Positions 1 to 58,617 of a stretch of 64,000 nucleotides of DNA are shown piece after piece (position 1 is the stretch's first letter; every line of letters starts with the position of its first letter). The translations under genes and the position numbers were made by a program. The DNA is from Chlorobiota bacterium. GTDB taxonomy: Bacteria > Bacteroidota > Ignavibacteria > Kapaibacteriales > UBA2268. The stretch spans positions 50,056 to 114,055 of the forward strand of contig JBKAGT010000006.1 in the NCBI GenBank assembly GCA_046290495.1, given 5' to 3'. The notes under the pieces are model-generated. The model was not told the origin of the DNA and did no database searches. It saw only the letters and a program-made list of their open reading frames with translations.

Positions 1-1267
1 CGAATGCATCATCTAAGTTTATAAGAGCGTTGAAGTTGTGCCAAGTGATATCGACACCAGATTTAATTACATGGTCATCGTAAGCTAAGTATTCTGCATT
101 TCCTTTTACTACTACATCACGAATACGTGAACCAGTGTTAAAGTTTGCTTCATCATCACCAAAGTCAGCATTGAATACATAGTCAGTATAAACTAATGAG
201 AAATTAGTGAATAGCTCTGGGTTTACTATGTGCATCCATCTGATATTAGCAGTACTATTTCCCCAGTTTATTCCAGCGTTTTCGTCTGTTTCTTCATCTA
301 AGTCAAAGACATCGCGGGCGAAGTATCCACTTACATATACTACATCGTTTTCTGATAGTTTGTAGTTTGCCTTAGCGTTGAAATCGTAGAAATAGTAATC
401 CGGTGCATCATCTTCAATCATACTGAGTAATAAATCGAAATAGAATCTTCGTCCCGATATCATGAAAGAAGAATTTTCATCAATTGGCCCTTCCAGTGTC
501 AATTTGGAACTTATTAGTGATAGACCTGCCTTACCAGATAGTTCATCTTTCGTACCTTCTTTCATAGTCAGATCGACTACACTCGATAACCGTCCACCAT
601 ACTCAGCAGGAAATGCTCCTTTTATCATTCTTACATCTTTGATTGCGTCATTGTTAAAAGAGCTAATAAAGCCAGCCAGATGTGACGGATTGTAAACAGT
701 CACTCCATCGAGTAATATCAAATTTTGGTCTGGCGAACCACCTCTTACATACAGCCCACTAGATAGTTCCGAGGCTGATGAGATACCTGGCAAAAGCTGA
801 AGAGTACGAAATATATCCACCTCGCCACCAAACGCCGGCATTTTTGATATAAAAGAGGGGGTTATATTTACTGAGCTTATTTTACTTGTTGTGTTTGTCT
901 CCCTGTCAGCTGTTACTACTAATTCTTCTGTCTGTACAGATGAAGTCAGCAACTGTGAGTTTAGTCTAACATCAGCACCTTCTAAAGTAATTCTATAGAC
1001 ACCTTTTTTGTACCCGATAGAGGAAATGTACAGATAGTATTCACCGTTCTGAAGGTTTGTTAGTGAATAGAAGCCAAACTTATTACTATATGTACCTTTT
1101 ACTAATGTCTCTGTTGAGGGTATGCTGTCAGTATAGAGGGCAACAGATGCTGAGATTATTGCTTCCTTGCTCACTGAGTCACTAATAATACCACTGATTG
1201 AGTATTTCTCTTGGCTGCACAAGATTGCAGGGATTAATAAAAGGAATAGTATTAGGTTTCTTTTCAT
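1..1267 (-). CDS. TonB-dependent receptor, N-terminal part (partial; 3' end lies beyond window start)
   Basis: Minus-strand reading frame open from the window edge to an ATG at 1267. Translation begins MKRNLILFLLLIPAILCSQEKYSISGII, with a signal peptide, a CarboxypepD_reg-like N-domain, then a TonB plug-like stretch (DGVTVYNPSHLAGFISSFNNDAIKDVRMIKGAFPAEYGGRLSSVVDL). Absent from the ORF track because there is no stop in the window. Confidence 0.8.
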   Translation of the reverse strand, partial: MKRNLILFLLLIPAILCSQEKYSISGIISDSVSKEAIISASVALYTDSIPSTETLVKGTYSNKFGFYSLTNLQNGEYYLYISSIGYKKGVYRITLEGADVRLNSQLLTSSVQTEELVVTADRETNTTSKISSVNITPSFISKMPAFGGEVDIFRTLQLLPGISSASELSSGLYVRGGSPDQNLILLDGVTVYNPSHLAGFISSFNNDAIKDVRMIKGAFPAEYGGRLSSVVDLTMKEGTKDELSGKAGLSLISSKLTLEGPIDENSSFMISGRRFYFDLLLSMIEDDAPDYYFYDFNAKANYKLSENDVVYVSGYFARDVFDLDEETDENAGINWGNSTANIRWMHIVNPELFTNFSLVYTDYVFNADFGDDEANFNTGSRIRDVVVKGNAEYLAYDDHVIKSGVDITWHNFNALINLDDAF

Positions 1268-1339
1268 ATATCTGTTGAAATTATTTCGATGAAAATAAGT
1301 ATTTACTATAGATTTTCAAAGTCTTATATTAATAAAAAA

Positions 1340-1393: not shown

Positions 1394-3469
1394 TTATTCT
1401 ATTATAATTCTTTGTAGAGCTTGTTCACCTAGGTCTGACTTTACCACAACATAGTACAAGCCAGGATTAATACCAGTCAGATCAATTGGTTTTACTAATT
1501 GCCCTTTTGCATATTGCGTAGGGTTACCAATTCGTTTTATTAACTTACCTGATAGATTGTATACTGCCATAGATAGACTTCTGTCTTCCTTCAACGACAG
1601 CTCAACTGATGATTGGTCAACTGCTGGGTTCGGGTATAGCTTCATACCTTGTATTGCACCCGAACAACCACTCCATACATCCATAACTGCATCATCTTTT
1701 TTCACTGGCTCGTTGTTACAGTGTTCCGCTTGATCGTCAGCAGCATTCAGCTCAGGATTGATTTTCTGTATCAATCTGCTCGGTAATTTTTCTAAGAACT
1801 CATCTGTTGCTTCGTACCAAACTATGAAATCTGTTTTGTCGCCACCTAAGCTCACCTCTATTGGTATCAGCTTGTTTATATCATGTTTGATTAAGGAGAA
1901 TGACATATTGGATAATCCATCGAGTTTATTGAGACTGTTTAATTCACTTAGCTTAGATAAATCTAACGCTGAACCATTTAATACTTTAGAATTAACATTT
2001 ACTGATTTTAGTTCTTTTATGTCAACATTATCTCCTGACCTCTGTAGCAAATCGCGTACATATACATCGTCGTCGAGTTGAGTATCATATACTGTATTTG
2101 CAGATACAGAATCGTAAAGTCTAATTAATTGCTCATCTGTAATCTCATTGCTATTATTGCTAACAATCTTAATTTTCTTTCCTTCTCTGAGACTCTTTAT
2201 AGGCATGTGTATAGTACTACCGTTGCTATTACTTGAACGAACATCAGCATCAGTTTCCACTAACACTATCCCGTCTCCATCAAGTGAGTCTAATGAAGTA
2301 ATCATTATTTTCTCTATGTCCTCATCACTTAAATCTTCAGATGTTAGGTTGACTTTTCTATCTATCTTCTTTTGAACATATCTAAACTCATTCCTAGTTC
2401 CATCTTCACTGTTTACATCCATTTCGACTTTCATGGTGATATCATCTTCTACTTCGCCTTCGAGTTCTTTTATCTTCATAAATTTCTCAATAGCATCAGG
2501 TGACATTTCTCCGCTTTTTAGCAAGTCTTTCAACTTGAAAGTCATTTCCTTGTCACCTATCTTCAGTTTGATATCTTCTAGACTCTCAATTCTATTAATC
2601 ACTTTTGCTGAGTCTTTGTGACCTGAAAGCATTGTTTTATAATCATCGAAGCTCATTTCACCGAATTTGAATTCTGGTAGATTCTCATCTATATCAAAGT
2701 CAACTTCAGATTTTATTTCAGTAGTCATTCTCAAAGACTGTGAATCACCATCTTCAGATTTCACTCGATCTACAATTGCTTCCAGTCCATCACTTTTGAA
2801 TAAGGTTAGTGTCTTAAAACCGCTTGCTGTTGTTACCATAGCCGGTGTAGGATATGCTTTTTCATCATTTTTATAAGGATTTCTTTCTTTGTTATTATCC
2901 TCATAGATAGTGAATGTGTATTTATCAAAAGCATTTACCTTAAAATTATCTTTATCAATGCTGATACCTAAGTTATCTAGTTCGTCAGCTGAGAGAGTAA
3001 GTGTATTAACTTGCTTTACATCTACCTCATCACTAGTCCAGATGTTATCTTTTGAATCCAGTTTAACCCTTTTAATTTTAGTTCTTCTAGCTAAACTGTC
3101 ATCATTTGGCTTAGGTGGATTCTTTTTCTCAAACTCTTTCTCTTTCTTGTGGTCGCGAGTTTTTGGCTCATTGTCATCGACTGGGATTATACCATCTTCG
3201 CCGTTGTCAGCTATTATTTCTATCTTATTTTTCGAATCGACTATATTTTCATTTGTTGGTTCAGTAAACTGAGAGAGCATAAGCACCCCAACAATTGCAG
3301 CCGAAGTAATTAAAGTCGTTATCATAGGATATGTCCGTATTTTGTTTAACAAATTAGTTGCAATGCCCCCATCACTCAATTTGCCTGCAAGAATCTTTCT
3401 CGTTTCTTCCTGACTTATGCCTGGTTCCACGTTTCTTGCTTTTTCAAAATATTTATCCAAATTATTCAT
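1394..3469 (-). CDS. putative anti-sigma-factor-like single-pass membrane protein with a long acidic extracytoplasmic region and a T9SS C-terminal sorting domain
   Basis: 691-aa ORF whose ATG overlaps the sigma factor stop (ATGA at 3466-3469). Short N-terminal cytoplasmic segment, one TM helix (ITTLITSAAIVGVLMLSQF), about 550 aa of D/E/K-rich low-complexity sequence, and a C-terminus (YPNPAVDQSSVELSL...VYNLSGKLIKRI...IDLTGINPGLYYVVVKSD..QRIIIE) matching the Por_Secre_tail/T9SS CTD pattern. Confidence 0.6.
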   Translation of the reverse strand: MNNLDKYFEKARNVEPGISQEETRKILAGKLSDGGIATNLLNKIRTYPMITTLITSAAIVGVLMLSQFTEPTNENIVDSKNKIEIIADNGEDGIIPVDDNEPKTRDHKKEKEFEKKNPPKPNDDSLARRTKIKRVKLDSKDNIWTSDEVDVKQVNTLTLSADELDNLGISIDKDNFKVNAFDKYTFTIYEDNNKERNPYKNDEKAYPTPAMVTTASGFKTLTLFKSDGLEAIVDRVKSEDGDSQSLRMTTEIKSEVDFDIDENLPEFKFGEMSFDDYKTMLSGHKDSAKVINRIESLEDIKLKIGDKEMTFKLKDLLKSGEMSPDAIEKFMKIKELEGEVEDDITMKVEMDVNSEDGTRNEFRYVQKKIDRKVNLTSEDLSDEDIEKIMITSLDSLDGDGIVLVETDADVRSSNSNGSTIHMPIKSLREGKKIKIVSNNSNEITDEQLIRLYDSVSANTVYDTQLDDDVYVRDLLQRSGDNVDIKELKSVNVNSKVLNGSALDLSKLSELNSLNKLDGLSNMSFSLIKHDINKLIPIEVSLGGDKTDFIVWYEATDEFLEKLPSRLIQKINPELNAADDQAEHCNNEPVKKDDAVMDVWSGCSGAIQGMKLYPNPAVDQSSVELSLKEDRSLSMAVYNLSGKLIKRIGNPTQYAKGQLVKPIDLTGINPGLYYVVVKSDLGEQALQRIIIE

Positions 3470-4014
3470 TTTGAGACCTTCTCACCGAAAGCTTTTACGT
3501 TATCGCTTTCATTAGTTAATGTTTTTTTTTCTACTAATATATTAGTTAGTTTTTCTCTGCCGCGTTTTAGTTGCGACTTCACTGCTGAGATCGAGCTGTC
3601 TTGCATTTTTGCAATTTCTGCTATCTTGAAGCCAGATATTTCGAATAATATTATGGCTTCCTTCTGATTGTCGGGTAGCTTGCCCAACGCCCAATATAGC
3701 CGCTCTACATCAGCGTCCAAATCCCCTCTATTTTCAGTAGTAAGATGATAATCATCAATGGAATCGCTGTACTCCATTCTACTTTCTTTGGCCTTCCTAG
3801 CGTTGTTTGTTCTTGTAGCTATAGTAAATAGATAACTTTTGAATGCAGAAGGTTTTTGTAGCTTGTCAAAACTTTGGTAAGCTGCCAAAATGGTTTCGCC
3901 AATCAAGTCATTACCCGCAAACCTGCTACCAGTCATAGCCATGCAGAAGCGTGACAAATCAGCTCTAACTGGTTCGAATAATTCTAAAAATTGTTTCTGT
4001 TTTCTTCTGCTCAT
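3466..4014 (-). CDS. RNA polymerase ECF-type sigma-70 factor
   Basis: 182 aa with sigma-70 region 2 and region 4 features (..LFTIATRTNNARK.., ..EAIILFEISGFKIAEIAKMQDSSISAVKSQLKRGREKL). Translationally coupled to the downstream membrane protein. Confidence 0.9.
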   Translation of the reverse strand: MSRRKQKQFLELFEPVRADLSRFCMAMTGSRFAGNDLIGETILAAYQSFDKLQKPSAFKSYLFTIATRTNNARKAKESRMEYSDSIDDYHLTTENRGDLDADVERLYWALGKLPDNQKEAIILFEISGFKIAEIAKMQDSSISAVKSQLKRGREKLTNILVEKKTLTNESDNVKAFGEKVSK

Positions 4015-4084
4015 TTTATCTATTTTTATTCGCTACATAATATAAGTGGGTTGAAATCTGAAAAAGTTGCAAAGGGGTATAAAA

Positions 4085-4117
4085 AAACCCAATCTTTTAT
4101 TCAATTCGACTGGGTTT
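4085..4117 (-). terminator. weak candidate terminator after the 4144..4455 gene
   Basis: AAACCCA...TGGGTTT inverted repeat with a long loop, followed on the minus strand by TTTTTTT. Confidence 0.3.
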
Positions 4118-4143: not shown

Positions 4144-4455
4144 TTACTTGCCACCGAGTATTATCGCCATTATTGCTCCCCAAAACATAATCATAATTAA
4201 TATACCTAAAGCAGCAGCTATCAACATCCATAATAATGTTGCTTTGGCGTAGTTTGCTTTATTTTGGTTGGTGTCATTTCCAAAAGCCCAGATGAATAAC
4301 ATAACAAAACCAACAATTGGAATAGAAGTGATTAGAAATGTTACAATCCAATCACCAACTGACATAACACTATTGTCTACTGGCATCTGATATGGGTTGT
4401 AATGTCCACCTTGTTGGTTCGGTTGTTGGGGTTGTTGGGGGTTTTCTGTTTCCAT
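4144..4455 (-). CDS. small Pro/Gln-rich membrane protein (2 predicted TM helices), hypothetical
   Basis: 103-aa ORF with ATG start. N-terminal PQQPQQPNQQ region, then two hydrophobic helices. Confidence 0.55.
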   Translation of the reverse strand: METENPQQPQQPNQQGGHYNPYQMPVDNSVMSVGDWIVTFLITSIPIVGFVMLFIWAFGNDTNQNKANYAKATLLWMLIAAALGILIMIMFWGAIMAIILGGK

Positions 4456-21683: not shown

Positions 21684-22163
21684 TTACAATGAATACCCAA
21701 ACTTGAAACTCACTGGATAAAATGGAATATTTTCCATAGAGTAAGTAGGGCAAATGGCACCACCAATAAACCAATCATCTCCTATTGTATGCCGGAATCC
21801 TAAAGTGAAACTAATTGAAGTTGCTGTATTGAAAAAATCACCTGGGTCATTAGTGTCATAATACTCTTGTACTATTGCTATTCCAATGTCTAGTTTCCTT
21901 TTTAATCCTGAAATGTAATGGAACCCAAGCAAGTAACTAGGCTGTGGCTTAAATAAAACCAAAGTCATTAAAGAAACTCCTAATCTAATTCTTATACTTT
22001 GTTCATTCACAGAGTCATTAGACATTTCAATAAATTTATACTCAAGATTTGGAGATATCAACCCTTTCTGAGGTCCTTGAAATTCATTGTATATGAAGAC
22101 ATTCTTATCATTCTTCGAAAATGAGACACTGTATAAAATCAATAGTAAAAGAAAATATTTCAA
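21684..22163 (-). CDS. small secreted beta-barrel-like protein, family B copy 1
   Basis: 159 aa, TTG start. Signal peptide. C-terminus ..AICPTYSMENIPFYPVSFKFGYSL is paralogous to 23656..24135. Confidence 0.6.
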   Translation of the reverse strand: MKYFLLLLILYSVSFSKNDKNVFIYNEFQGPQKGLISPNLEYKFIEMSNDSVNEQSIRIRLGVSLMTLVLFKPQPSYLLGFHYISGLKRKLDIGIAIVQEYYDTNDPGDFFNTATSISFTLGFRHTIGDDWFIGGAICPTYSMENIPFYPVSFKFGYSL

Positions 22164-22486
22164 AAGCTGTACCCCATACTTAAACCAATGTAATGTGTTA
22201 GGACTCCTTCTTCATATTCTGATTCAATAATAAATGAGGGTGTATATGTTATTCTATAAATAATATTATCAGAATATAATCTATACCCTATTTCAAAACC
22301 AATTGCATTGTAGTCATCTTTTGATGCCACACGCTCAGAACGTGGCAAACTTTTATTTAAAAAATCACGATGGTATCGTTCAAAATAATTTATCCCTAAA
22401 TCTATTCCCTCATCAGTACCTAAGTATTGTATAAAGCCTATAATTGGATAACTATACACTAAAACCACGTCATAAAAACCAAACAT
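22160..22486 (-). CDS. family A copy 1, N-terminally truncated paralog (no signal peptide; possible pseudogene)
   Basis: 108 aa. Aligns only to the C-terminal two thirds of 24123..24632 (DDYNAIGFEIGYRLYSDNIIYRITYTP.. vs DNYDALGFNVGLREYSDSFFFRINYTP..). An in-frame stop lies 39 nt upstream of the ATG, so there is no room for the missing N-terminus. Confidence 0.45.
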   Translation of the reverse strand: MFGFYDVVLVYSYPIIGFIQYLGTDEGIDLGINYFERYHRDFLNKSLPRSERVASKDDYNAIGFEIGYRLYSDNIIYRITYTPSFIIESEYEEGVLTHYIGLSMGYSF

Positions 22487-22565
22487 TGATGAACCGTATT
22501 TAATATGAAGATAATATGAAAATTGTCAAGATTATATATTTAGAAAAACTGTTCAACTATGAATT

Positions 22566-23618
22566 TTACTTTTTAATAAACTTAATGAATTCATCATCTA
22601 TATTGAGAACATAACAACCACTAACAAGGTTTTTTATATCTAACTTATAGTCAGAATTAGGGATATTACTTAATTCTTTAACCAAGTCTCCAGATAGGTT
22701 GTAAAGCTTTATGCTATAGGGTAATTTATTGCTATTAACAATTAAGTATTCTTCAGCTGGGTTTGGGTAAACAATAAAAGAAGCTGACTTAGTATTTTCT
22801 ACTGATGAAATAGGTTCTAATTTGGTTTTGGAAATAACACCAGTATTATACTCACTTACATACATATCATCACCATTTATAATAAATCTAGTAGGCCCAC
22901 TATATGAATCAGTAAAGAATTCTGGGTAAGGGTTTGAATCAGTTAAGTCTAATTTAAATATTAACCCACTATTTGTATTACAGACATATAAATAATTTTC
23001 TCTTATTCTGACCCCATAAACACCTCCTAAGTCAGTTGCTAAGTCTTCAATAATGGGATTTTCTATAGTAATGTCAATTTTCGATATTTTTTTTGCTCCA
23101 TATTCACAAATAAATAAATCATCACCATCTATTGCTAATCCCTCTGGTTCATCGAGACCATAGACAACATCTGATAATACTGGATTCTCTTCGGTAATAT
23201 TTATTTTAGAAATTTTTCCTGCCCTGAATTCACTAATAAATAAATAATTTCCACTATGTGCTAATCCTGAAGGCCCATTTAATCCAGAAACAACTTCAAT
23301 TGAAACAGGGTTATTTGCTGTAATGTCAACCTTAGAAATTCTACCAGCAAAAAATTCAGAAATATAAAGATAATTTCCAATTAGAATTATCCCGCTAGGT
23401 GAATTCAATTCAGAAACAACTTCAATTGGGGTAGGTTCAACCTCAGTAATTTCAATTTTTGATAACTTCTTAGCATCACTTTCAACAAAGTATAAAAAAT
23501 CACCATCGATAGCTAACCCATAGGGTCCCTTCAGAAATTTTAAGATATCTGTTGTTTGAGGTAAAATTACTGTAAAGCTACAGATAAAGATAACAGTAAA
23601 GATTATAAATTTTCTCAT
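22566..23618 (-). CDS. secreted six-bladed beta-propeller protein with T9SS C-terminal sorting domain
   Basis: 350 aa. Signal peptide. About 6 repeats of about 43 aa (..GLA.DGD.LY..E....KISKI.IT..NP..). C-terminus VYPNPAEEYLIV...LYNLSGDLVKEL...LDIKNLVSGCYVLNIDDEFIKFIKK. Confidence 0.8.
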   Translation of the reverse strand: MRKFIIFTVIFICSFTVILPQTTDILKFLKGPYGLAIDGDFLYFVESDAKKLSKIEITEVEPTPIEVVSELNSPSGIILIGNYLYISEFFAGRISKVDITANNPVSIEVVSGLNGPSGLAHSGNYLFISEFRAGKISKINITEENPVLSDVVYGLDEPEGLAIDGDDLFICEYGAKKISKIDITIENPIIEDLATDLGGVYGVRIRENYLYVCNTNSGLIFKLDLTDSNPYPEFFTDSYSGPTRFIINGDDMYVSEYNTGVISKTKLEPISSVENTKSASFIVYPNPAEEYLIVNSNKLPYSIKLYNLSGDLVKELSNIPNSDYKLDIKNLVSGCYVLNIDDEFIKFIKK

Positions 23619-23655
23619 TTCGAGTACCTAAAGATTTAAATGGAAAAAAAATTGC

Positions 23656-24135
23656 CTAGAATGAATAGCCAAATTTAAAACTCACAGGATAAAATGGCTT
23701 ATTTGTAATTCCATAAGTAGGGCATATTGCAAACCCTACAAAGTAATCATCATCAAGATCATGCCTATAGCCAACATTAAAAGATACTGATGTTCCTGTA
23801 TTCATCACATATTTCTCTTGTAAAACTTGATATAATATGTTTACTCCTAGATCTAACTTATGTTCATCACCTCCAATATAGTGAAATCCACCAAGAAAGC
23901 TTGGGTAAAAAGTAAATAATGATAAACCTGTAATCCTAACAGCCCCTCTTAATCTCAAATCACCTTCATTAAGTAGCATACTATCCATCGAAAGTAATTT
24001 CATTTCATAATTCACTGAAAAAAGTGATTCCTGGGGGCCGTAAAATTCTGTGTATAAAAACATATCACTTTCTTCACAAAACGTGATGGAATATGAGAGC
24101 AATATTAGTATAGTTAAGTATTTCAAAAGCCCCAT
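23656..24135 (-). CDS. small secreted beta-barrel-like protein, family B copy 2
   Basis: 159 aa, ATG start, signal peptide. C-terminus ..FAICPTYGITNKPFYPVSFKFGYSF. Alternating hydrophobic strands. Confidence 0.6.
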   Translation of the reverse strand: MGLLKYLTILILLSYSITFCEESDMFLYTEFYGPQESLFSVNYEMKLLSMDSMLLNEGDLRLRGAVRITGLSLFTFYPSFLGGFHYIGGDEHKLDLGVNILYQVLQEKYVMNTGTSVSFNVGYRHDLDDDYFVGFAICPTYGITNKPFYPVSFKFGYSF

Positions 24136-24632
24136 CCAAAACTAAAACTAACAATTCCTCTAAACTCTTTATCTGTCAAATTATATAAAGGGGTATAATT
24201 TATCCTAAAAAAGAATGAATCTGAATATTCTCTTAAACCTACATTAAACCCTAACGCATCATAATTGTCCAATTCATACATTGAGTTAACTTCTACAAAA
24301 TCTCCATAGAAATCACTTTTATACTGACGAAAGTAGCTAGCTCCAAATTCTACACCAAACTCATCACCTATAACATGGTTTATACCTACTATAGGTGAAG
24401 AATACGCTGTACGATATCCTAGTCCAAACATAGATGCACCAAGTGTAAGATATGTTGTCTGAAGTCCTCCAAATAGCTCGAAACTGTTTACATTGTATTC
24501 CAATGTAGGTTTGAGTAGCGGCGAGTAGCCTAATATTTCACAATAAATATTGATAGTCTTTTCTTCAGATTTTAATGATAATGAAGAAAGAATGAAAAAT
24601 ACTAAAACGATATACATTGAAAATCTGTTCAA
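24123..24632 (-). CDS. small secreted beta-barrel-like protein, family A copy 2 (full length)
   Basis: 169 aa, TTG start giving MNRFSMYIVLVFFILSSLSLKS signal peptide. C-terminus ..FRINYTPLYNLTDKEFRGIVSFSFGWGF. Confidence 0.6.
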   Translation of the reverse strand: MNRFSMYIVLVFFILSSLSLKSEEKTINIYCEILGYSPLLKPTLEYNVNSFELFGGLQTTYLTLGASMFGLGYRTAYSSPIVGINHVIGDEFGVEFGASYFRQYKSDFYGDFVEVNSMYELDNYDALGFNVGLREYSDSFFFRINYTPLYNLTDKEFRGIVSFSFGWGF

Positions 24633-35925: not shown

Positions 35926-38900
35926 ATGAAACAATCGTTTACTAAATTGGCATTTATGCTACTTTTAGCTTTAACTATGGCACTTCCAAGCACTTTGTTT
36001 AGTGGTGTAGATGAAGCTGAAATGACTGAAAAGCTACCTGCTTTACTTGGTCAAGACAATATGGGGCGTGAATTTTGGTTCGCGATTCCACCAGTATATG
36101 AAGAAGTAGCTGGTGATAACTTCGTTAGAGTCTTAGTGACAAGTGATGTAGAGACAGATGTTGTCATTCAAGTAGAAGGTAAAGGGGTTTATAAGAAAAA
36201 AACTACAATCCCAAATAGTGTAATTGACTTTGAATTGAATCCTGCACAAGCACAACCGATTCCACATAGATTGGGTACTCATATTTCACCACCAGCAAAA
36301 ATATATAAAGGTGCAGGTGTACAAGTATCAGCAGACCAACCAATCGTTGTTTATGTAGTAATCAAATACAAATATACTTCAGATGGTTTCCTAGCTCTTC
36401 CTGTTTCTGGATTAGGTGATAGATACATCAATATGGTTTACCAAGATCCAGCTTTGGGTGGTGCTAATAGCCACGCACCAGCATTCACTTGTGTTACGGG
36501 TGTTTATGACAATACTCAAGTCAATATGACTATGGGTGGTGGCCCTATGGGTAGTGATAAAATGAAGTTAGATGGTGGTAGAGAATTAGCAACTGGTGAC
36601 CAAACATCATTCTTCTTAGATAGAGGTGATGTATGGATGGGTGCTTCTAGTGGCCATTTTCAAGATATTTCTGGTTCATTGTTCGAAGGTACGAAGCCAT
36701 TCGCAATAGTTTCTGGTATGCACTGTGCTAACTTCCCGGTTGGGAATGCTTGGTGTGATTATACAGTAGAAATGGAATTACCAACTTATGCTTGGGGTAA
36801 ACAATACTATATTACTCCTATGGAAGGTAGAACTTATAATGGTATAATCAGAATTTATGCCGCAGAAGACAATACTACAATTTATAGAAATGGTCAAGTA
36901 ATGGGTTTACTTACTCATGGTGGTGGTAATACGATAGGTAAAGCTTATATGGAGATGAGAGTCTGGCCAAAACTTGATGACTTCGGCCAAGCAATAAGAC
37001 CAAAAATTGCTACTATCCATGCTGACAAACCAATTGCAGTGATGTATTATAATACTGGTACACAAGAAGATGTTGGTACTGCAGATAGTGATCCATTCCA
37101 ATTATTCTTTACTCCTATTGAGCAATTCCAAACGGAAATATTATTCCCTTCACCTAATGCATTAGGTGGGACAGATTTTTATACTAAGAATTATGTGAAC
37201 ATTGTTTATGAAATGCACGAGGATTTCATACCTCAAGATTTAATGTTTGCTAAAATGGAAGTTGGAAGAGATCCGGACTGGAAACCAGTTTCTCAAGTAG
37301 TGGCTGGTGCTCCTAGAGTATTTACTGAAAAATACCAAGGAAAGGAATTTGGTACTTCTACTCTATCCTTACCTACAGAAGGTGTGTTTTCACTAAGGTC
37401 AGACTCAACTAAATTTGTTGCGTATTCTTATGGGTTTGCTTCATACGAGTCTTACGGTTTCCCTACTTCTGCTGCACTTCGTGATTTATCTTCACCTGAC
37501 ACGAACGCTCCAGTTCCTAATTACGTTCAAGAATGTAATGGTGATGTACTAAAAGACATGGGTACAGTAACTGATATGCCAGAAGATGATGAAGTAAGAT
37601 CAAATATGGCAGATTTATACCTAATAGAAAACTTAAATGATAATTATGTACTAGACTATAGAATACCGGGAACTAACAATAAAGATTTCATTCCTGGTGA
37701 GCAAAGAACATTATCATGGTGGTTAACTGTAGTTGACAAAACTCAGCCTGCAAGAGCTACTATAGCTTTCTTAGATAGAGCTGGTAATGACACTACTATT
37801 ACGATTAGCTACGATCCACCTGAGTTTGAAGTAGTAAGCGGTAATGCATTTGGTGTTATGGCTGCTTCTGATGCTCCTGTGGTAATGCAAGATACAATAA
37901 GAAACTTATCTACTACAGTACCTCAGTATATAACTAAGGTTGAGTTGCAAGATGGTGGTCAAGGATTTAGTATAGCTAGTTTTGAACCTGCTGGTTGGAC
38001 GCCGCCAATGGAAATTGGTCCAGGTGAAGAAGTTATTGTAAATATAGAGTTTGATCCAGCGGCTGCTGCTGCTAGTGGAGAAAAAGCAATTTACATAGAC
38101 TCGCTTGGTGTAGGTTATGGAGATGAGGATTTCAATGAGTGTGGATTTGCTTACTTCACTGAACAATCTGGTTCTCTGGGAGTTCCAGTAATCGAAGTAA
38201 CTGATTGGGACTTCGGCACAAGAAATATAAACGAAGTAACTCCTGACACTAGAATTATGACTATAACCAACACTGGTGATGAGATGCTAAGAATTACAGG
38301 TATCTCACAAGATTTACCTGCTGGTTCTATGTTCACTCATAACTTCATGACTTTATTCCCTGATGTATCTGTTGATACACCTTTAGAAATTGCACCAGGT
38401 GACTTAGTAGAGTTTCAAGTAGGATTTATGCCTACAGCTGTTGGAACTTATGCTGAAAACATTGTATTTGATAATAATACTAAAGATGGTAATACTACAG
38501 ATCATATCTGTGAATTGAAAGGTGTTGGTACTGATGCCCCTGTTTCTGCTGATGGTTATGTATGGCAAGGTGTTTTAATTAATAGACCTGCTACATTCCC
38601 TGCTGGACCTTATGATGTTGATGTAGATAGTCAACATGATGGATTCATAGTAAAGAATCTTGGTGATGCTGATGGAGACATAGCGCAAGTTGTTTCTATA
38701 AATATTGTTAGCGAAACTCCAAATGCAAGAGAATACTTCAGAACGAAGAACGGTGACGAAAATATCGTTGACTTCTTAAATAATAGTATTAGAGGACTAA
38801 ACTTAGCTGGAGATGTTACTAGAGAAGAAGCTATAGTCTTTAATCCTACTGAAAAAGGTCTTCACAGAATTGAGTTTGAATTAGTATTCAATGAAGAAAC

Positions 38901-40521
38901 TGGTAATGCAACATTACCTGTAGTTTATGAAGGTATTGGTGAAGCACCAAATGTCGAGGTAACAAATGTAACATTTGCACCTATGTTAGTTAACGATGAA
39001 GCTAATGCTCAAACTACTGGTGTGATGACAATTACTAATACTGATGATGAATATGGTCATCCTCTGAATATAACTGGAATTTCATTCGATAATGCTATTG
39101 TTAGCGATGATATTGCTGATTTCCAAGGACTAACATTCAGATATGATGGTAATTTATATCAAGACTTAGTAGATGGTAATATTATTCTGAATAAAGGTCA
39201 AAGTTTAAACATCCCAGTACATTTCGTAGCAAGACAAGTAGGAAATAATTCTGTAGTTGCAACGATTGAGTCGAATGCATACGTAGATGGTCCTGATTAC
39301 GATAATGATTCTGATTGGAATGGTGTAGGTACAGATCTAATTGTAAATATTAGTTCTCCTTATACTCTATTATGTCTAAATGAAACTGAATTTATTAATA
39401 TTACATTATCAAATCCTGGAACTGATAACCCAGTAACCATAAATGAGTTATCATTATCTGATTATGATTTAGACGGAGACGGTGTTGATGACTTATTCAT
39501 TACTTCTCCAACAACTAACGTAACAGTACCAGTGAATGGTGATGTCAATGTAGTTGTAGAATACACTCCTACTGGTTTAATCAACAGACAGTTTGTAGAG
39601 CTTATTATCGATCATGATTATGGTAATAATTTGGCAATCAATGGTGCAGATGAAGCATTAGAAGTTGAATCAGAATTCTTCGTTGGTAATACTCAGACAA
39701 ATGTAACTGGTGCTAGCAGTAGTAATCCTACAAATCCTGATTATGATACAGAGTATATGGTGTCAATTGGCGATGAATTCGAATATCAAATTGGATTAAC
39801 TGGTAACGCATCAGGAACTGATGCACAGACAATTACTGTAAATATTAATTATAATAGTTTGTTTACATCACCTTTGATTGAAGAAGGTAACAATATGCCT
39901 AATATTACTAGTGAAGCTAGTGCAGAAGTACAACCGGGATCTTATTCCGTAGCTCCTGATGCGAACGGCCCTAAAGGTAGTATGGTTATGACATTTACTC
40001 TACAAAGCACAGATGGTAGTTCTATATTTGCTAACAATAATATAATTGCTAGTGTTCCATTCAGAGTTGTACTTCCTGCAGTAAATGAGGAAGGTGCTCT
40101 AGGTGAAATTGGACAAGATGACGATTCTTATGGAAGATTCGATATGAGTCATACTCTAACTGATTTACCAACTTGTTATGCACACACTGAAGACGATGTG
40201 TTATTAGCAATCGAAGAGATTTGTGTTGGTGATTACAGAGCACTTTATGTTAGTGACTTTAACTTCGGTGAACCAAATGTAACTCCTAACCCTGCAAGTT
40301 CTGCAGCGACTATAGAGTACACGGTGCCTTATGATATGCCTGGTGAGATTATATTGTATAACTCAGCTATGCAACAAGTTAAGACACTTTACAGTGGTGA
40401 GATGAAAGAAGGTGTTAGAACAGCTGATGTTCCTGTTAGTGAACTTTCAAATGGTACTTACTTCTTCACTGTTAAGATTGGTGAAAAACAACAAATGGGT
40501 AGAATAGTTATTGAGAAATAA
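35926..40521 (+). CDS. giant secreted surface/adhesin-like protein with IgGFc-binding-N-terminal-like domain and T9SS C-terminal sorting domain
   Basis: 1531 aa. Signal peptide. N-terminal region (..GREFWFAIPPVYEE..VLVTSDVETDVVIQV..) paralogous to the N-terminus of 56254..58617. Long beta-rich middle. C-terminus VTPNPASSAATIEYTVPYDMPGEIILYNSAMQQVKTLYSGEM...GTYFFTVKIGEKQQMGRIVIEK. Confidence 0.8.
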   Translation: MKQSFTKLAFMLLLALTMALPSTLFSGVDEAEMTEKLPALLGQDNMGREFWFAIPPVYEEVAGDNFVRVLVTSDVETDVVIQVEGKGVYKKKTTIPNSVIDFELNPAQAQPIPHRLGTHISPPAKIYKGAGVQVSADQPIVVYVVIKYKYTSDGFLALPVSGLGDRYINMVYQDPALGGANSHAPAFTCVTGVYDNTQVNMTMGGGPMGSDKMKLDGGRELATGDQTSFFLDRGDVWMGASSGHFQDISGSLFEGTKPFAIVSGMHCANFPVGNAWCDYTVEMELPTYAWGKQYYITPMEGRTYNGIIRIYAAEDNTTIYRNGQVMGLLTHGGGNTIGKAYMEMRVWPKLDDFGQAIRPKIATIHADKPIAVMYYNTGTQEDVGTADSDPFQLFFTPIEQFQTEILFPSPNALGGTDFYTKNYVNIVYEMHEDFIPQDLMFAKMEVGRDPDWKPVSQVVAGAPRVFTEKYQGKEFGTSTLSLPTEGVFSLRSDSTKFVAYSYGFASYESYGFPTSAALRDLSSPDTNAPVPNYVQECNGDVLKDMGTVTDMPEDDEVRSNMADLYLIENLNDNYVLDYRIPGTNNKDFIPGEQRTLSWWLTVVDKTQPARATIAFLDRAGNDTTITISYDPPEFEVVSGNAFGVMAASDAPVVMQDTIRNLSTTVPQYITKVELQDGGQGFSIASFEPAGWTPPMEIGPGEEVIVNIEFDPAAAAASGEKAIYIDSLGVGYGDEDFNECGFAYFTEQSGSLGVPVIEVTDWDFGTRNINEVTPDTRIMTITNTGDEMLRITGISQDLPAGSMFTHNFMTLFPDVSVDTPLEIAPGDLVEFQVGFMPTAVGTYAENIVFDNNTKDGNTTDHICELKGVGTDAPVSADGYVWQGVLINRPATFPAGPYDVDVDSQHDGFIVKNLGDADGDIAQVVSINIVSETPNAREYFRTKNGDENIVDFLNNSIRGLNLAGDVTREEAIVFNPTEKGLHRIEFELVFNEETGNATLPVVYEGIGEAPNVEVTNVTFAPMLVNDEANAQTTGVMTITNTDDEYGHPLNITGISFDNAIVSDDIADFQGLTFRYDGNLYQDLVDGNIILNKGQSLNIPVHFVARQVGNNSVVATIESNAYVDGPDYDNDSDWNGVGTDLIVNISSPYTLLCLNETEFINITLSNPGTDNPVTINELSLSDYDLDGDGVDDLFITSPTTNVTVPVNGDVNVVVEYTPTGLINRQFVELIIDHDYGNNLAINGADEALEVESEFFVGNTQTNVTGASSSNPTNPDYDTEYMVSIGDEFEYQIGLTGNASGTDAQTITVNINYNSLFTSPLIEEGNNMPNITSEASAEVQPGSYSVAPDANGPKGSMVMTFTLQSTDGSSIFANNNIIASVPFRVVLPAVNEEGALGEIGQDDDSYGRFDMSHTLTDLPTCYAHTEDDVLLAIEEICVGDYRALYVSDFNFGEPNVTPNPASSAATIEYTVPYDMPGEIILYNSAMQQVKTLYSGEMKEGVRTADVPVSELSNGTYFFTVKIGEKQQMGRIVIEK

Positions 40522-41369: not shown

Positions 41370-43691
41370 ATGAAACAGTTAATAAAAGTCTTATTTCTAC
41401 TCTTTTCTGTTAGTTTCCTTTATTCTCAACCGGATAATTTTACCTCAAATTATGACAAGTATAATTGCTTTGCATTCGATGACGACAACTACTATGTGGG
41501 TCTAGTCAATGGCTTTGTAGTGCAAGATAGGGAAACGGGGGAATATAAATATTACTCTACACTCAACTCGGATATGAAAGGTAATAATGTGAGTGATATT
41601 GATGTGTATAAAGGTAAGGTGTATTTTACTTCTAATAGGGGTGTCTATAGTTACAGTAATAGCATTGTAGAAAGTCTGGGTTATGATTCTTTATTTTTTT
41701 CAGGCATACAAAAAGATGAAGAAGGTTACCTCTGGTTTTACAGTAATGATTTAATATTTGGTTTTGATGGCAGTTATTTCAAGTATTTCGACCTCTCATT
41801 ACATACGTCTAGGTATGCTGAATTAAATAAAATATATACTCATGAAGAGTATTTGTGGCTTTCTTTTAAAACTTATAATAATAAGTATTCTTATGTCTTG
41901 ATAAATGTAAATGAAGATACTCTAAAAGCATTTGAACCAGTGGAGATTGGATTTGAAGATAATTATACGAAACTTATTGCTTTTTCAAATGGAAAAGCTT
42001 GGCTCAAATCTACAAGCAACGAAGTTTTTAATTATACTTTTTCCTCAAGTGAATGGAGCGAAGAAAATACTAAGTTTATCACTCCTTATGGCTATCAAAT
42101 AGTACCATATATAATTACAAACCAAAAGGGGAAGATGTGGTTTATAATGTTCGATAAAGTTGGTGAAGGAGTACGGAAAGTAGCCACTTTTGAGAATGAT
42201 CAATATGTCGTTGAAACAAAATTTGAGGAGTTAGCTGCTAATAATGGCAAAACCTGGAATAGGTTATACAAATTTGATGACGAATTAATACTATCAACTG
42301 TATCGGGTGAGTATTACAGAATAGAAGATGAAATTCTTGAGTTAATTGCTGAAGCAGATACAAATGCTAAATTAACACAAGAAACTAATTTTTATAAAAA
42401 TGAGGATGAATTATTTAGATTAGCTAGAGTAACTAGAAACGAGACTTCTGCATTTGAAATTATTGATATAGAAAACAATAAAATAGACGAATTTAGAATT
42501 ACAAATAAGACTTATTTTCCATACCTTACATTAGGTAGTTACTATAAGATAGATGGAATGGAGTTTATTTCAAGGTATTATAACAATATATCCCGTGTCA
42601 ATAAAGATGGCATTTGGAATGGGGTTTCAACAATAGGTGTTGTAAATGATGATGGGGTCGTTGTTAAGAAAGATGTAAAGGGGGACTACTATTTTTACGA
42701 TGATTATCTATACAAATACAAAAATGGCAATGCTGAAAAGCTTTTCCGTTTTTCTCCTGAATATTTAAGAGGTATAGAAATTCATAATAACAACTCTTAT
42801 TTTTATTATTCCTATAAAATAGGTAATCATTATGTTGAGTTTAATCTAAATAGGAAGTTCGGAGTTAGGGTTGGGGCGTATGATCCAAAAGGAGAAAAGA
42901 TAAATGAAATATCTGATGAGGATGATTGCATAAACAATTGGTATGAGTATGGGAAATACTCAACATATTATTATGGGTCAGTACCTTCAGATATTAAAAT
43001 AGACAATAATAGTAATATATGGCTTTTAACATGGACTTCTCTCTATTATTTGGAAGAAAATAGCAACTGTACTTATTTTAAGTTTGAAAGTGATGAAGAT
43101 GATGAAGCAATAAAGCCAAACCAAATTGCTTATTCGAGATATCAAGGAAAGATGTATGGTAAAAGAGACAATTTGGTTTATAGCTTTAATGAAAGTGACT
43201 TTAAGACTGCTGACTCTAAAGATATGGTTGACGGGGAACTAAACTTTATCGGTGAATGTAACGATGGTTTGGTTTATGTAGCTACAACTGATGGTCGTCT
43301 GTTTAGACTAAATACTATAGATAGTTGGGAGAAAATACCCTTGGTAGAAGGGAAAGAAAGCATTCACGCTAATATTCGTAATGTATTTAGAAGTGAAGAT
43401 ACCCTGTATGTATCTACAGAAATTGGTTTAATCAAAGTTCATCAGAAGATTACATCGTTTGCAGAAGGAACGACTAAAGTTGACGATATTAATGTATATC
43501 CAAACCCTGTTGGAAGTGAGCTAACTGTAGTTGGCTATGAAGGCAAGGCCACGATTTTTAATTCTTATGGTACTGAAATTAAAAACATTGAGATTGATAA
43601 TAGCAATATTGACGTAAGTGGTTTAGTGCCTGGAATATATTTCATTTCAGATATTTATGGGAAGCAAATAGCTAAATTTGTTAAGGAATAG
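41370..43691 (+). CDS. secreted beta-propeller-repeat protein with T9SS C-terminal sorting domain
   Basis: 773 aa. Signal peptide. Reg_prop/Y_Y_Y-like repeats in the N-terminal region. C-terminus INVYPNPVGSELTVVGYEGKATIFNSYGTEIKNIEI...GLVPGIYFISDIYGKQIAKFVKE. Confidence 0.75.
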   Translation: MKQLIKVLFLLFSVSFLYSQPDNFTSNYDKYNCFAFDDDNYYVGLVNGFVVQDRETGEYKYYSTLNSDMKGNNVSDIDVYKGKVYFTSNRGVYSYSNSIVESLGYDSLFFSGIQKDEEGYLWFYSNDLIFGFDGSYFKYFDLSLHTSRYAELNKIYTHEEYLWLSFKTYNNKYSYVLINVNEDTLKAFEPVEIGFEDNYTKLIAFSNGKAWLKSTSNEVFNYTFSSSEWSEENTKFITPYGYQIVPYIITNQKGKMWFIMFDKVGEGVRKVATFENDQYVVETKFEELAANNGKTWNRLYKFDDELILSTVSGEYYRIEDEILELIAEADTNAKLTQETNFYKNEDELFRLARVTRNETSAFEIIDIENNKIDEFRITNKTYFPYLTLGSYYKIDGMEFISRYYNNISRVNKDGIWNGVSTIGVVNDDGVVVKKDVKGDYYFYDDYLYKYKNGNAEKLFRFSPEYLRGIEIHNNNSYFYYSYKIGNHYVEFNLNRKFGVRVGAYDPKGEKINEISDEDDCINNWYEYGKYSTYYYGSVPSDIKIDNNSNIWLLTWTSLYYLEENSNCTYFKFESDEDDEAIKPNQIAYSRYQGKMYGKRDNLVYSFNESDFKTADSKDMVDGELNFIGECNDGLVYVATTDGRLFRLNTIDSWEKIPLVEGKESIHANIRNVFRSEDTLYVSTEIGLIKVHQKITSFAEGTTKVDDINVYPNPVGSELTVVGYEGKATIFNSYGTEIKNIEIDNSNIDVSGLVPGIYFISDIYGKQIAKFVKE

Positions 43692-56253: not shown

Positions 56254-58617
56254 TTATAGTGGGAATCTGAAACCAGCTCTGACACCAAATGTTGACACAC
56301 TCCAATCTGCATCATCAACCATATTAGTAAGTCTGTTTGAATAGGTAGCTTCAAAGAAAGTCTGAGTGCTATTATAGACATTAATCCTAAATCCAATACC
56401 TATATTTGCTGCGATACCAATAGTATTTAAAGACGAAAGCTCAGTTTGAGGTAAATCTAAAGTATTAGTCTGATTCTCAAAAACATAGTCCTCTGGTATT
56501 ATTATCTCTTTCTCAGCTTCTATCGTACTACTGAGTGGAATATCGAATTGCAAACCACCATGTAAGTAAATATTGTTTGTCATTAGGTATTCAAGCCCAA
56601 TAACAACATTTGTAAACAGTCCTGTCAATTCAAAATTTACAGATTCTTTATAGTCGTCTAACTCACCTGTGTTGGGATTTCTTGTTGAGCTCGTTGTTGA
56701 ATCCGGTGCTTTTAGCTTACCGTCATAATTCATGAAATTCAAGCGTCCAATTAGATTGAGTTTCTCGTCTACTCTATACGCAGCCAATGCTCCAAACTCC
56801 ATAGAAGTGGATGCAATATCACTAAAAGTACCTTTAGATGTAATATTACCTGTATTACTGAAATCAGCGCTATGGTTCACATAGTTATAACCAATTGAAA
56901 CACCTATTTCCCACGGTATAGTTTCAGCACAGCTTACTTCGTGTCCTTCTTGTAGCTGATACTGATATCTATTGGCTACCTGATTGAATGTATAGCAGAG
57001 TGTATATTTTGATTTATTGCCAGCCATGTCAGTAGCTATTAATTTCACTGATTGGTTTTTCGAATATTTATTACTTCCAAAGTTACTTATTACCAATGGT
57101 GTACCTGGTTCATATTCTAAAGTCTCGAAATCAAAACCCGTGTTGTCCGTGAACTCGACATTTGCAACACCGCGGTCATTATTTCTATCATCTCTAATCA
57201 ATAGTTTGAACCCATCTGCACCGTTATCATAGTCAACTAGAGGAGCTTCTGTATCTGGTGCTTCTATGTATTCCATAAATGACTGGCCACCCAGTGAGCC
57301 ATAAGCATCATACCTATCATCACCAAAACCAAAGCCGTAACTTGTCATACCGAATGGTTCGCTACACTCTATTACGTGTGTTCCGTAATTTACACCAACT
57401 TGTGCAAATGAATAACGGCTATTGCCTAATTTCCTGAAGCTATTGACGTCAAGTCTAATTCCATTTAATCTAATTGATTCTAATGCATTAGTTGGTGCCA
57501 CTACATTCACGAAGTGCTCCCATGAGCCATCTACAGGGGTGGCGAATCTATACTTTTTCAAAAACTGCTGGGTAGGACTAATAAGCAACATCATTGGGTC
57601 ACCAATTCTATCACCATTGTCAAACCCTTGTGAAAATTGTGCCACAAGTACTGGGTTAGTTGCCGTTATTTGAACAGATTTTTTAGTTTCTCTTTCTAAG
57701 TGTTGACCAGCATTCAGCGTTCCAATAAGCTTGTTATTCTCAAAAACTTTTGTGCCATCTTCGTTTGCCAATACTCTATAATTGTAAAAACTTCTCTTTT
57801 TGAAAGCTCCTATGTAGAAGTGCTTACCCCAAGAATTCAATGGTGGTACTTGCTCAACCAAGTGATTACAAGCAATTACATCTGTTGGAACATAAGCACA
57901 CTGGTGCCCACTAAATACAGCTATTTTTTTGTTTGATTCAACAAGTGAGCCAGTCAAATCACAGTCATCAATACATTTTTCATAATTAGCTGCTGCAACT
58001 TGGTAAACATCACCTTTATTAAGTACCACTTTAAATGGTACACCTCTTTTGTGTCCACCATCAGTATCAACAGTTGGAGTTATAGTTACTTCTGTTTTGT
58101 CTTCAGTTGCTACTATTGCAAACTCTGCCATTAGTTTTATTGAAACATCATAACACATAACTCTATAGGTTTGCCCTAATACATTAACAGGAAATCCCAT
58201 AAATGTATCAGTAGTCAATTTCCTTCTGTTCAGACCATATACAGATATAGGAACATCTGAAGTAACGTGTATTCCTCTTCCACTCTCTATTATTTCTGAA
58301 CTAGTAACTTGTGCGAGATTAGATATTTGTATTGCTTTTACAGTGCCACCTTTAACAAAAATGTCCTCACTGAAACCAATGCTTTTAATTCTAATCTTTA
58401 CATTTGCATCCTTGTCAGAAGTTAGGAAAAGCTTAAGGTCTAATGGTGTTACATTCGGGTTGTCGCGCGTTGCATTATTATGATTTCGCATAAAACACAG
58501 CCAAAATTCTGTCCCTTCTGGGCTTTTTTCAGTTAATATTTTATCTCTATCAACTTGAGCGAAAGCAAAAAAAGAAGTAGCTATGATTAGTATTATTATT
58601 ATGGCAATCTTTCTCAT
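56254..58617 (-). CDS. secreted protein with IgGFc-binding-N-terminal-like domain and C-terminal outer-membrane beta-barrel-like domain (autotransporter-like architecture)
   Basis: 787 aa. Signal peptide. The N-terminal half is paralogous to the 35926 gene N-terminus (EFWLCFMRNHN.. / ..GDVYQVAAA). The C-terminal about 230 aa has alternating amphipathic strands ending ..STFGVRAGFRFPL. Confidence 0.75.
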   Translation of the reverse strand: MRKIAIIIILIIATSFFAFAQVDRDKILTEKSPEGTEFWLCFMRNHNNATRDNPNVTPLDLKLFLTSDKDANVKIRIKSIGFSEDIFVKGGTVKAIQISNLAQVTSSEIIESGRGIHVTSDVPISVYGLNRRKLTTDTFMGFPVNVLGQTYRVMCYDVSIKLMAEFAIVATEDKTEVTITPTVDTDGGHKRGVPFKVVLNKGDVYQVAAANYEKCIDDCDLTGSLVESNKKIAVFSGHQCAYVPTDVIACNHLVEQVPPLNSWGKHFYIGAFKKRSFYNYRVLANEDGTKVFENNKLIGTLNAGQHLERETKKSVQITATNPVLVAQFSQGFDNGDRIGDPMMLLISPTQQFLKKYRFATPVDGSWEHFVNVVAPTNALESIRLNGIRLDVNSFRKLGNSRYSFAQVGVNYGTHVIECSEPFGMTSYGFGFGDDRYDAYGSLGGQSFMEYIEAPDTEAPLVDYDNGADGFKLLIRDDRNNDRGVANVEFTDNTGFDFETLEYEPGTPLVISNFGSNKYSKNQSVKLIATDMAGNKSKYTLCYTFNQVANRYQYQLQEGHEVSCAETIPWEIGVSIGYNYVNHSADFSNTGNITSKGTFSDIASTSMEFGALAAYRVDEKLNLIGRLNFMNYDGKLKAPDSTTSSTRNPNTGELDDYKESVNFELTGLFTNVVIGLEYLMTNNIYLHGGLQFDIPLSSTIEAEKEIIIPEDYVFENQTNTLDLPQTELSSLNTIGIAANIGIGFRINVYNSTQTFFEATYSNRLTNMVDDADWSVSTFGVRAGFRFPL

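Follow-up and report, generated by a model that had tools for sequence, protein, structure and literature searches.

This account concerns two adjacent genes on the reverse strand of a 64,000-nucleotide stretch of Chlorobiota bacterium DNA (contig JBKAGT010000006.1), the whole of which is referred to here as the window and supplies all coordinates. The first gene encodes a sigma factor of the extracytoplasmic function (ECF) kind. The second, which overlaps it, encodes a 691-residue partner protein with the layout of a membrane-anchored anti-sigma factor, and this partner ends in a C-terminal domain (CTD) of the sort that marks proteins for a type IX secretion system (T9SS).

The locus and its sigma factor

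Read along the reverse strand, the elements of the locus are as follows.

4081..4117, minus strand: hairpin and T-run (AACCCAgTC...GAtTGGGTTTTTTT), by direct reading, between the upstream gene for a small membrane protein and the sigma promoter
4043..4071, minus strand: candidate promoter of the ECF type, presumably autoregulated, TGCAACTTTT-N15-CTTA, with its end 28 nt ahead of the sigma ATG
3466..4014, minus strand: gene for an ECF (group 4) sigma-70 factor of 182 amino acids (aa), with matches to Pfam Sigma70_r2 and Sigma70_r4_2 and to TIGR02937
1394..3469, minus strand: partner gene, encoding a putative anti-sigma with a T9SS CTD, 691 aa
1338..1368, minus strand: terminator-like hairpin and T-run, a 14-pair stem followed by TTTTATT, 26 nt past the partner stop codon

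The sigma factor consists of sigma-2 and sigma-4 domains only, each scoring above its family threshold (PF04542, 34.3 bits against a cutoff of 24; PF08281, 47.5 bits against 25.7), which is the composition of ECF group 4. It scores 70.6 bits with TIGR02937 (cutoff 42.9) and reaches none of the NCBIfam subfamily cutoffs (sigma_PG0214, for example, gives 67 against a cutoff of 130). A profile of the sigma family matches solved ECF sigma factors, 5uxx_A at 6e-26 and then SigH, SigW and RpoE. The partner protein is 100% identical to an NCBI entry named 'T9SS type A sorting domain-containing protein [Chlorobiota bacterium]', which derives from a metagenome-assembled genome (MAG), and relatives of it are encoded in MAGs of Kapaibacterium and Ignavibacteriae (Fibrobacteres-Chlorobi-Bacteroidetes, or FCB, group).

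Since hairpins stand on both sides of the sigma and partner genes, the two are taken to form a two-gene operon. The hairpin at 4081..4117 was missed by the hairpin scan; two related loci, L004 and L005, have a cleaner one at the equivalent place. The unit is probably a self-contained, autoregulated two-gene ECF sigma/anti-sigma operon.

The partner protein, region by region

The partner divides into regions that have been conserved to very different degrees. The identities listed here come from an alignment of 18 members of the partner family and are identities to its distant members. The predicted local distance difference test (pLDDT) values come from an AlphaFold2 (AF2) model, which was used for secondary structure and for the CTD only; domains A and B were not interpreted from it.

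3332..3469, minus strand: N-terminal domain, aa 1-46 (LDKYFEKARNVEP...KLSDGGIATNL..KI), the proposed sigma-binding part; 68% identity, with 22 residues invariant in the 18 members
3266..3331, minus strand: single transmembrane (TM) segment, aa 47-68, a predicted signal anchor with its N-terminus inside (N-in); 47% identity, Kyte-Doolittle peak 1.84, AF2 helix at 47-68
3029..3265, minus strand: charged juxtamembrane linker, aa 69-147; 20% identity, 23% gaps, pLDDT 24-45
2765..3028, minus strand: beta-rich ectodomain A, aa 148-235; 61% identity, invariant PTPAM.TT..GFKTLTL.K, pLDDT 57-72 with beta strands
1883..2764, minus strand: variable, modular acidic middle, aa 236-529; 26% identity, 39% gaps
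1649..1882, minus strand: ectodomain B, aa 530-607, directly before the CTD; 69% identity, containing C584 and C602
1397..1648, minus strand: T9SS type A CTD, aa 608-691, at the extreme C-terminus; 59% identity, PF18962 and TIGR04183

A good part of this anatomy had been anticipated by a sequence-only reading of the locus, which had noted the ATGA junction of the ECF sigma gene with the gene downstream, a short cytoplasmic N-terminus followed by one TM helix, some 550 extremely acidic residues of low complexity and a terminal Por_Secre_tail. The junction is there at 3466-3469, where the partner ATG overlaps the TGA stop of the sigma gene by direct reading of the sequence. The predicted cytoplasmic N-terminus comprises 46 hydrophilic residues, with a single hydrophobic segment after it and a positive-inside bias of charge. 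The middle, for its part, is acidic as described (in 540 residues, D+E 21%, K+R 14%, isoelectric point 4.6). The description of it as low in complexity fails: its entropy is 3.0-3.9 bits in 40-aa windows, and two conserved domains lie within it. The Por_Secre_tail is taken up below.

The AF2 model places three short helices in aa 1-46, with low confidence, and the linker at aa 69-147 is probably disordered. The partner's only cysteines, C584 and C602, both fall in domain B and both are invariant across the family; the pair fits a disulfide in what would be an extracytoplasmic domain. Domains A and B are without a Pfam match, and scans of Pfam and NCBIfam gave nothing meaningful for either. Homologues range from 573 to 1018 aa in length because modules have been gained or lost in the variable middle, and comparison of the sequences suggests that ectodomain modules are shuffled in this family. 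Two of the longest, P0003 (1018 aa) and P0006 (963 aa), hold extra modules of ~300 aa within the part that corresponds to 1883..2764 of the window, and short motifs such as RDLLQRS.D.V reappear at differing positions in the middle region of close homologues.

The sigma clade and its shared N-terminal motif

Relatives of the sigma factor at 40-50% identity were collected from genomes and metagenomes; there are more than 402, and the best 80 loci were kept. The complete downstream partners analysed number 58, of which 18 are of the CTD type (one of them, L017, truncated) and 40 are not. The two-gene sigma/partner module recurs in dozens of loci with unrelated flanks, the genes typically overlapping by 4, 8 or 14 nt, and the same gene order is found in L001-L005, L011, L012 and L016 and in most of the 80 metagenomic loci. 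Such a pairing is far beyond chance. The partner gene thus lies directly 3' of an ECF sigma gene and has been kept there across relatives, as anti-sigma genes are.

In nearly all of the 80 loci, moreover, the gene after sigma begins no more than a few bases from the sigma stop codon and opens with the motif [LI][DN]xx[FL]xxA[KR]......S..E, followed by one hydrophobic segment. What comes after that segment is various. By Pfam, the ectodomains of the 58 complete partners include Por_Secre_tail (17), FGE-sulfatase (17), DUF2807 (8), DUF4097 (3), WG_beta_rep (2), PD40 (1) and TPR (1), and several match none. (Motif-bearing partners are found at L006, L013, L014 and L015 and at ~40 of the loci L017-L096, some of them with ectodomains of ~600 aa and no known domain.)

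A hidden Markov model (HMM) trained solely on residues 1-48 of the 40 partners that lack a CTD, and hence from no protein with a sorting signal, picks out the window partner from the 473 open reading frames (ORFs) of the window at 24.9 bits (E=3.4e-7), the runner-up scoring 2.7 bits. The isolated real N-terminus scores 26.8 bits with the same HMM, and 2000 shuffles of it score 4.6 bits at most. The N-terminus of the window partner is, in other words, homologous to those of sigma-coupled partners with differing ectodomains, and as architecture the anti-sigma-like partner with a T9SS CTD that the sequence-only reading proposed is upheld. A conserved, sigma-adjacent N-terminus, one TM segment and interchangeable ectodomains match the genomic definition of an anti-sigma family. 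The motif looks like an unannotated family of anti-sigma N-domains for which neither Pfam nor NCBIfam has a model, and on this comparative evidence we consider it likely that the window pair is a sigma/anti-sigma module.

In one lineage the pair has been damaged. At L005:5001-7260 and L017:4001-6260, where the sigma factor is 88% identical to that of the window, the sigma gene has W108 changed from TGG to TGA and a frameshift near its 3' end, and the partner gene has an in-frame TAA within the CTD that leaves the 571-aa P0005. Two independent assemblies show the same lesions, which affect both genes, so that sigma and partner seem to be undergoing decay together. These sequences are consistent with the joint loss of sigma and partner; reassignment of a stop codon is the alternative.

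The T9SS sorting domain and its distribution

The curated cutoffs of both models of the T9SS type A CTD are passed by the end of the partner, so that the Por_Secre_tail recognised by eye is a real one. PF18962 matches aa 611-690 of 691 over its full length (HMM 1-75 of 75), scoring 39.1 bits (cutoff 27) at E=9.3e-10; the TIGR04183 score is 38.3 bits (cutoff 23). A match of this kind at the extreme C-terminus is what identifies a type A CTD. AF2 models the CTD as a beta-sandwich. A Foldseek search of the Protein Data Bank (PDB) with the AF2 model brought weak matches only, to the mirolase CTD (8qb1_A, TMt 0.64), to the RemA-CTD (8gl6_D, TMt 0.58) and to PorU.

Among the 58 partners, an iterated HMM of the CTD finds the domain in 17 complete proteins and, truncated, in L017, always at the extreme C-terminus. 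The most divergent examples checked, those of L096 and L087, are both confirmed by TIGR04183. Three loci at a distance from the window, L011 (from a 4.49-Mb genome), L012 and L016, have the same partner layout, with sigma factors 44-50% identical to that of the window. Domain A is common to the window family and to L011, L012, L025, L039 and L044, and domain B, immediately before the CTD, is present in 16 of the 18 CTD-type partners as against none of the 40 others.

The sigma factors with CTD-bearing partners form, in a neighbour-joining tree, one large subclade, with few exceptions: three of its members have non-CTD partners and one CTD-type locus lies outside. The match of the sigma subclade with CTD-type partners implies a long co-diversification of the sigma factor and its CTD-bearing partner, and the sequence-only reading's suggestion that relatives be examined for conservation of the pair is answered in the affirmative. 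A weak match to CHU_C, a type B CTD, turned up among the 58 partners; it could not be located in the candidate groups and was not used. Besides the partner, no fewer than three proteins of the window have a CTD, and others are encoded beside the homologues. On the sequence evidence it is rather probable that the partner CTD would be functionally recognised by the T9SS.

One homologue also carries a caution for annotation. At L016:4120-5574 the source gene call takes as its start an internal Met, after which comes a stretch resembling a signal peptide (MMRSITSRLTAASAALISAATVTTSAQ). The ORF in fact extends without a break from a start farther upstream, and the part so added encodes the N-terminal motif and the TM segment. 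Automatic annotation can therefore mask the architecture, making such proteins resemble ordinary cargo.

Membrane anchor or signal peptide

Whether the partner is more than ordinary cargo turns on the hydrophobic segment, which the sequence-only reading took for a membrane anchor while allowing that it might be a cleaved signal peptide. Hydropathy shows one such segment, at approximately aa 47-68. In the 18 CTD-type partners the segment begins at residue 42-71 and its uncharged stretch has a mean of 25 aa and a minimum of 19. The 15 residues on its N-terminal side hold 3.17 K/R and 0.89 D/E per protein, those on its C-terminal side 1.50 K/R and 2.67 D/E, and in each of the 18 the N side has at least as many K/R as the C side. 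Hydropathy, charge bias and the position of the cysteines all point to an N-in single-pass topology, and by heuristics of the same sort the partner appears to lack the cleavable N-terminal Sec signal peptide of T9SS cargo. Cleavage after the segment seems unlikely.

The segment is unlike an ordinary signal peptide in being of membrane length and in starting only at residue 47, behind a domain that is 68% identical. The N-terminal 46 residues are, indeed, conserved as highly as any region of the partner. With 22 invariant residues, and with an identity well above that of the TM segment (47%) and linker (20%), the N-terminus is therefore regarded as a functional domain and not as the n-region of a signal peptide. 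An internal start at Met49, which would produce a plain signal peptide, was considered and set aside as unlikely: P0005 has Ile at that position, and the ATGA overlap has been conserved. Three other CTD proteins of the window (22566..23618, 35926..40521 and 41370..43691) have ordinary signal peptides from residue 1, and T9SS cargo is therefore common in this organism.

The putative promoter

The block at 4043..4071 is invariant in five close loci whose flanks have otherwise diverged. The clade-wide consensus is TG[CTA]AACTTTT-N15-CTTA[CT], and the same motif with the same spacing is found 5' of sigma in at least 16 distant loci. An AAC-containing -35 element, a conserved -10 element and a fixed spacing between them, which together characterise autoregulatory ECF promoters, are all present at the level of sequence, and the site looks like a typical promoter of that class. 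A site on the plus strand with one mismatch (TGGAACTTATTAGTGATAGACCTGCCTTA, 505..533) was considered as a member of the regulon and rejected: it lies inside a TonB-dependent receptor gene on the opposite strand and is probably there by chance, since the expected chance count is 0.35.

Other genes in the window

2..1315, minus strand: TonB-dependent receptor gene with CarboxypepD_reg and Plug domains, running off the window, directly after the operon terminator
4144..4455, minus strand: gene immediately upstream of the sigma promoter, for a protein of 103 aa that has two hydrophobic segments and is Gln/Pro-rich at its N-terminus
21684..24632: cluster of several small paralogous ORFs with signal peptides
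22566..23618, minus strand: Por_Secre_tail protein
35926..40521, plus strand: large IgGFc_binding-domain protein, also with Ig-like and cohesin-like matches and a borderline CTD
41370..43691, plus strand: Por_Secre_tail protein
56254..58617, minus strand: large IgGFc_binding-domain protein

The signal peptides of the two IgGFc_binding-domain proteins and of the two Por_Secre_tail proteins are ordinary ones. The 103-aa protein has no family match, and it is not conserved beside the module in L001 or L003.

A possible mechanism and its rivals

With slightly more confidence than doubt, we read the whole as an inner-membrane-anchored anti-sigma that presents a T9SS signal. Its basis is observed: the gene architecture, the CTD, the N-in segment, the N-terminal homology, the co-evolution of sigma and partner, and the promoter. 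The partner would be a single-pass protein of the inner membrane, its conserved 46-aa N-terminus holding the sigma factor in the cytoplasm. Its ectodomain of ~620 aa would cross the membrane via Sec and, uncleaved, stay attached to it, ending in the two-cysteine domain B and the CTD. The T9SS (PorV/SprA) would then recognise the C-terminal end, and if it does so, the anti-sigma is engaged by outer-membrane machinery or is partly displayed at the surface while remaining tethered by a long linker. (The spacing from the TM segment to domain B is at least ~160 residues in every member.) Altered engagement by the T9SS might expose the membrane-proximal part to regulated proteolysis; candidate triggers are a surface cue, pulling, cleavage of the CTD by PorU and failure of export. 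The freed sigma factor would transcribe from its own promoter, TGCAACTTTT-N15-CTTA, and from other targets. The variants of this mechanism, in which the partner is a surface sensor (RsgI-like), a monitor of T9SS activity or load (FlgM-like), processed cargo or a purely periplasmic sensor, cannot be separated. In one of its forms a single polypeptide would span the whole envelope, with sigma at the cytoplasmic end and a C-terminal sensor threaded through the outer membrane by the T9SS; this we hold to be doubtful.

Several results count against an anchored anti-sigma that presents a T9SS signal, and they fall into three groups. The first has to do with the N-terminus, which in the sequence-only reading was to be compared with models of anti-sigma N-terminal domains and which matches none of them. 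Its 80 residues match nothing in Pfam at E<=10 and contain no recognised anti-sigma domain (class I anti-sigma domain, zf-HC2, RskA, FecR and RsgI_N were looked for), there is no NCBIfam match and no His/Cys zinc-binding motif, and a profile search of the PDB returned no relative. A phmmer search of the N-terminal 75 aa against 1.84 billion representative sequences found the close family only, together with a spurious repeat protein (P0031). (A word-indexed search, for which 10 diverse N-termini were combined into a profile, yielded just two fragments, both from the partner family.) The second concerns what surrounds the module and how well the partner can be modelled. No convincing second copy of the promoter, and hence no regulon, is seen in the 64-kb window, where 4043..4071 is the sole exact match; none of the ten further window ORFs that were scanned is a gene for T9SS machinery; and the AF2 model of the full partner, based on an alignment of 18 sequences, has a mean pLDDT of 42. 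The third is a matter of the secretion system itself. T9SS substrates are described as all having a cleaved Sec signal peptide and as folding in the periplasm before transport (PMC10202324). A membrane-tethered T9SS substrate is without precedent and might simply fail to be transported.

According to the principal rival, the pair is a genuine sigma/anti-sigma pair in which the CTD-like beta-sandwich is never exported. The ectodomain would remain in the periplasm as a whole, tethered to the inner membrane, with domain B and the CTD serving as an ordinary periplasmic sensor or interaction domain and perhaps binding a T9SS shuttle or another periplasmic ligand. The ectodomains of other partners (FGE-sulfatase, DUF2807, DUF4097, WG repeats) resemble normal periplasmic sensor domains, and T9SS substrates are reported to be freed into the periplasm by signal-peptide cleavage before they are transported (PMC10202324). 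Set against this, the match to the CTD models is full-length and above curated cutoffs, and the domain is always very C-terminal in 18 diverged partners, which is what a secretion signal requires, and has retained that position across a deep sigma subclade. An unexported CTD is, on balance, rather unlikely.

That T9SS cargo should be unattached within the periplasm (PMC10202324) would be reconciled with the presence of a CTD if the partner were cut in two by signal peptidase, by autoproteolysis or by a site-1 protease. The ectodomain would then be T9SS cargo, and the N-terminal stub with its TM segment a short-lived anti-sigma, so that sigma activity would report export flux, as in a FlgM-like checkpoint, and not a surface signal. 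A small-residue motif after the TM segment in some members (..LSISS|P..) is a possible signal peptidase site, and the linker, unconserved and probably disordered, would be accessible to proteases. But in the window partner the sequence after the TM segment, LMLSQF-TEP, makes a poor -3/-1 site, the putative site is unconserved in the family, and no autoproteolytic motif was identified in the partner. Both the processing itself and the flux-reporting role that would follow from it appear improbable to us, and they amount more to a variant of the anchored anti-sigma than to a contradiction of it.

That the partner is ordinary T9SS cargo with a long, 'extended' signal peptide, co-transcribed with sigma and perhaps its target but with no anti-sigma role, is very improbable: the CTD, the failure of known anti-sigma domain models to match and the existence of extended conserved signal peptides in type V secretion (the extended signal peptide region, ESPR) speak for it, but the N-terminal motif is found only beside the sigma genes of this clade (including those of partners without a secretion tag) and is as well conserved as any region, the start/stop overlaps with sigma are conserved, normal cargo in the same window has short signal peptides, and sigma and partner decay jointly in one lineage (L005/L017).

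Comparison with known systems

The anti-sigma systems that come closest in general plan are RpoE-RseA, SigW-RsiW and SigV-RsiV, in which the sigma factor is released by regulated intramembrane proteolysis. Like the window module they pair a sigma gene with a downstream gene that is translationally coupled to it and whose product is a single-pass N-in protein, under an autoregulated promoter of the AAC type (in the window a putative one), and the structures matched by the profile of the window sigma factor include SigW, SigH and RpoE. They differ from it in that the window N-terminal domain fits no known anti-sigma model and has no zinc motif, and in that a T9SS signal at the end of the ectodomain is absent from all of them. 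The type A cargo of the T9SS (gingipains, RemA, mirolase) shares with the partner the full-length terminal Por_Secre_tail/TIGR04183 domain and the beta-sandwich with its weak structural matches. Cargo of that kind is reported to have, in every case, a cleaved Sec signal peptide (PMC10202324), whereas the partner has a membrane-length segment that starts at residue 47, after a sigma-associated domain.

As a link between an ECF sigma factor and a protein with a CTD, the closest known parallel is the PorA-PorXY-SigP system of Porphyromonas gingivalis, where a CTD protein is tied to ECF sigma activity and a relay from the surface to the cytoplasm has been proposed (PMC7712824). PorA is, however, a separate protein located at the surface, and it acts via the two-component PorY/PorX with unknown intermediates (PMC7712824). 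In the window, by contrast, a single polypeptide, encoded beside the sigma gene, holds both the CTD and the putative sigma-binding domain.

Modular, variable ectodomains on a single-pass anti-sigma have a counterpart in Gram-positive bacteria. The RsgI anti-sigma-I proteins of Clostridium thermocellum are single-pass proteins with variable, modular external sensor domains, in an organism with no outer membrane; the sigma family and the N-terminal domain are different ones, and RsgI_N has no Pfam match in the window partner. Secretion control of an anti-sigma likewise has a counterpart: FlgM, the antagonist of sigma-28, is a soluble anti-sigma that leaves the cytoplasm in one piece through the flagellar type III secretion system. 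The likeness lies in an anti-sigma with a secretion signal, such that secretion competence controls sigma activity. The differences are that only the periplasmic end of the partner could be reached by an outer-membrane system and that the proteins have no homology.

FecI-FecR-FecA and the ECF/anti-sigma/SusC systems of Bacteroides polysaccharide utilization loci control an ECF sigma factor across the envelope, as is proposed for the window module, and a TonB-dependent receptor gene comes right after the window operon. Their outer-membrane sensors are distinct proteins. FecR, DUF4880 and DUF4974 have no Pfam match in the partner, and the visible part of the receptor contains no STN domain. A FecIRA-like system was therefore rejected, there being no FecR domain and no STN domain, and the adjacency of the receptor not being conserved (L001, L003).

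No description of an anti-sigma with a T9SS CTD was found in the searchable full-text literature, the coverage of which is incomplete, and the main text of the ECF reclassification paper makes no mention of one. The combination of an ECF sigma/anti-sigma module with a T9SS sorting signal is probably new.

Implications

On the current view, ECF anti-sigma factors of diderms respond to the periplasm or depend on a separate outer-membrane transducer. Among the 58 complete partners covered here, roughly one in three has a T9SS sorting signal on the putative anti-sigma itself, an arrangement that would extend the rules for T9SS substrates or reveal a regulator that monitors T9SS function. The sensing of T9SS load and activity is largely an open question, and a defined sigma factor, a promoter motif and a CTD that can be deleted or swapped make it directly testable. 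Should the partner truly span the envelope, it would provide one-component signalling from the cell surface, in which surface events, or type IX secretion as it proceeds or fails, are relayed directly to transcription, and it would be the first T9SS substrate to be kept anchored in the inner membrane.

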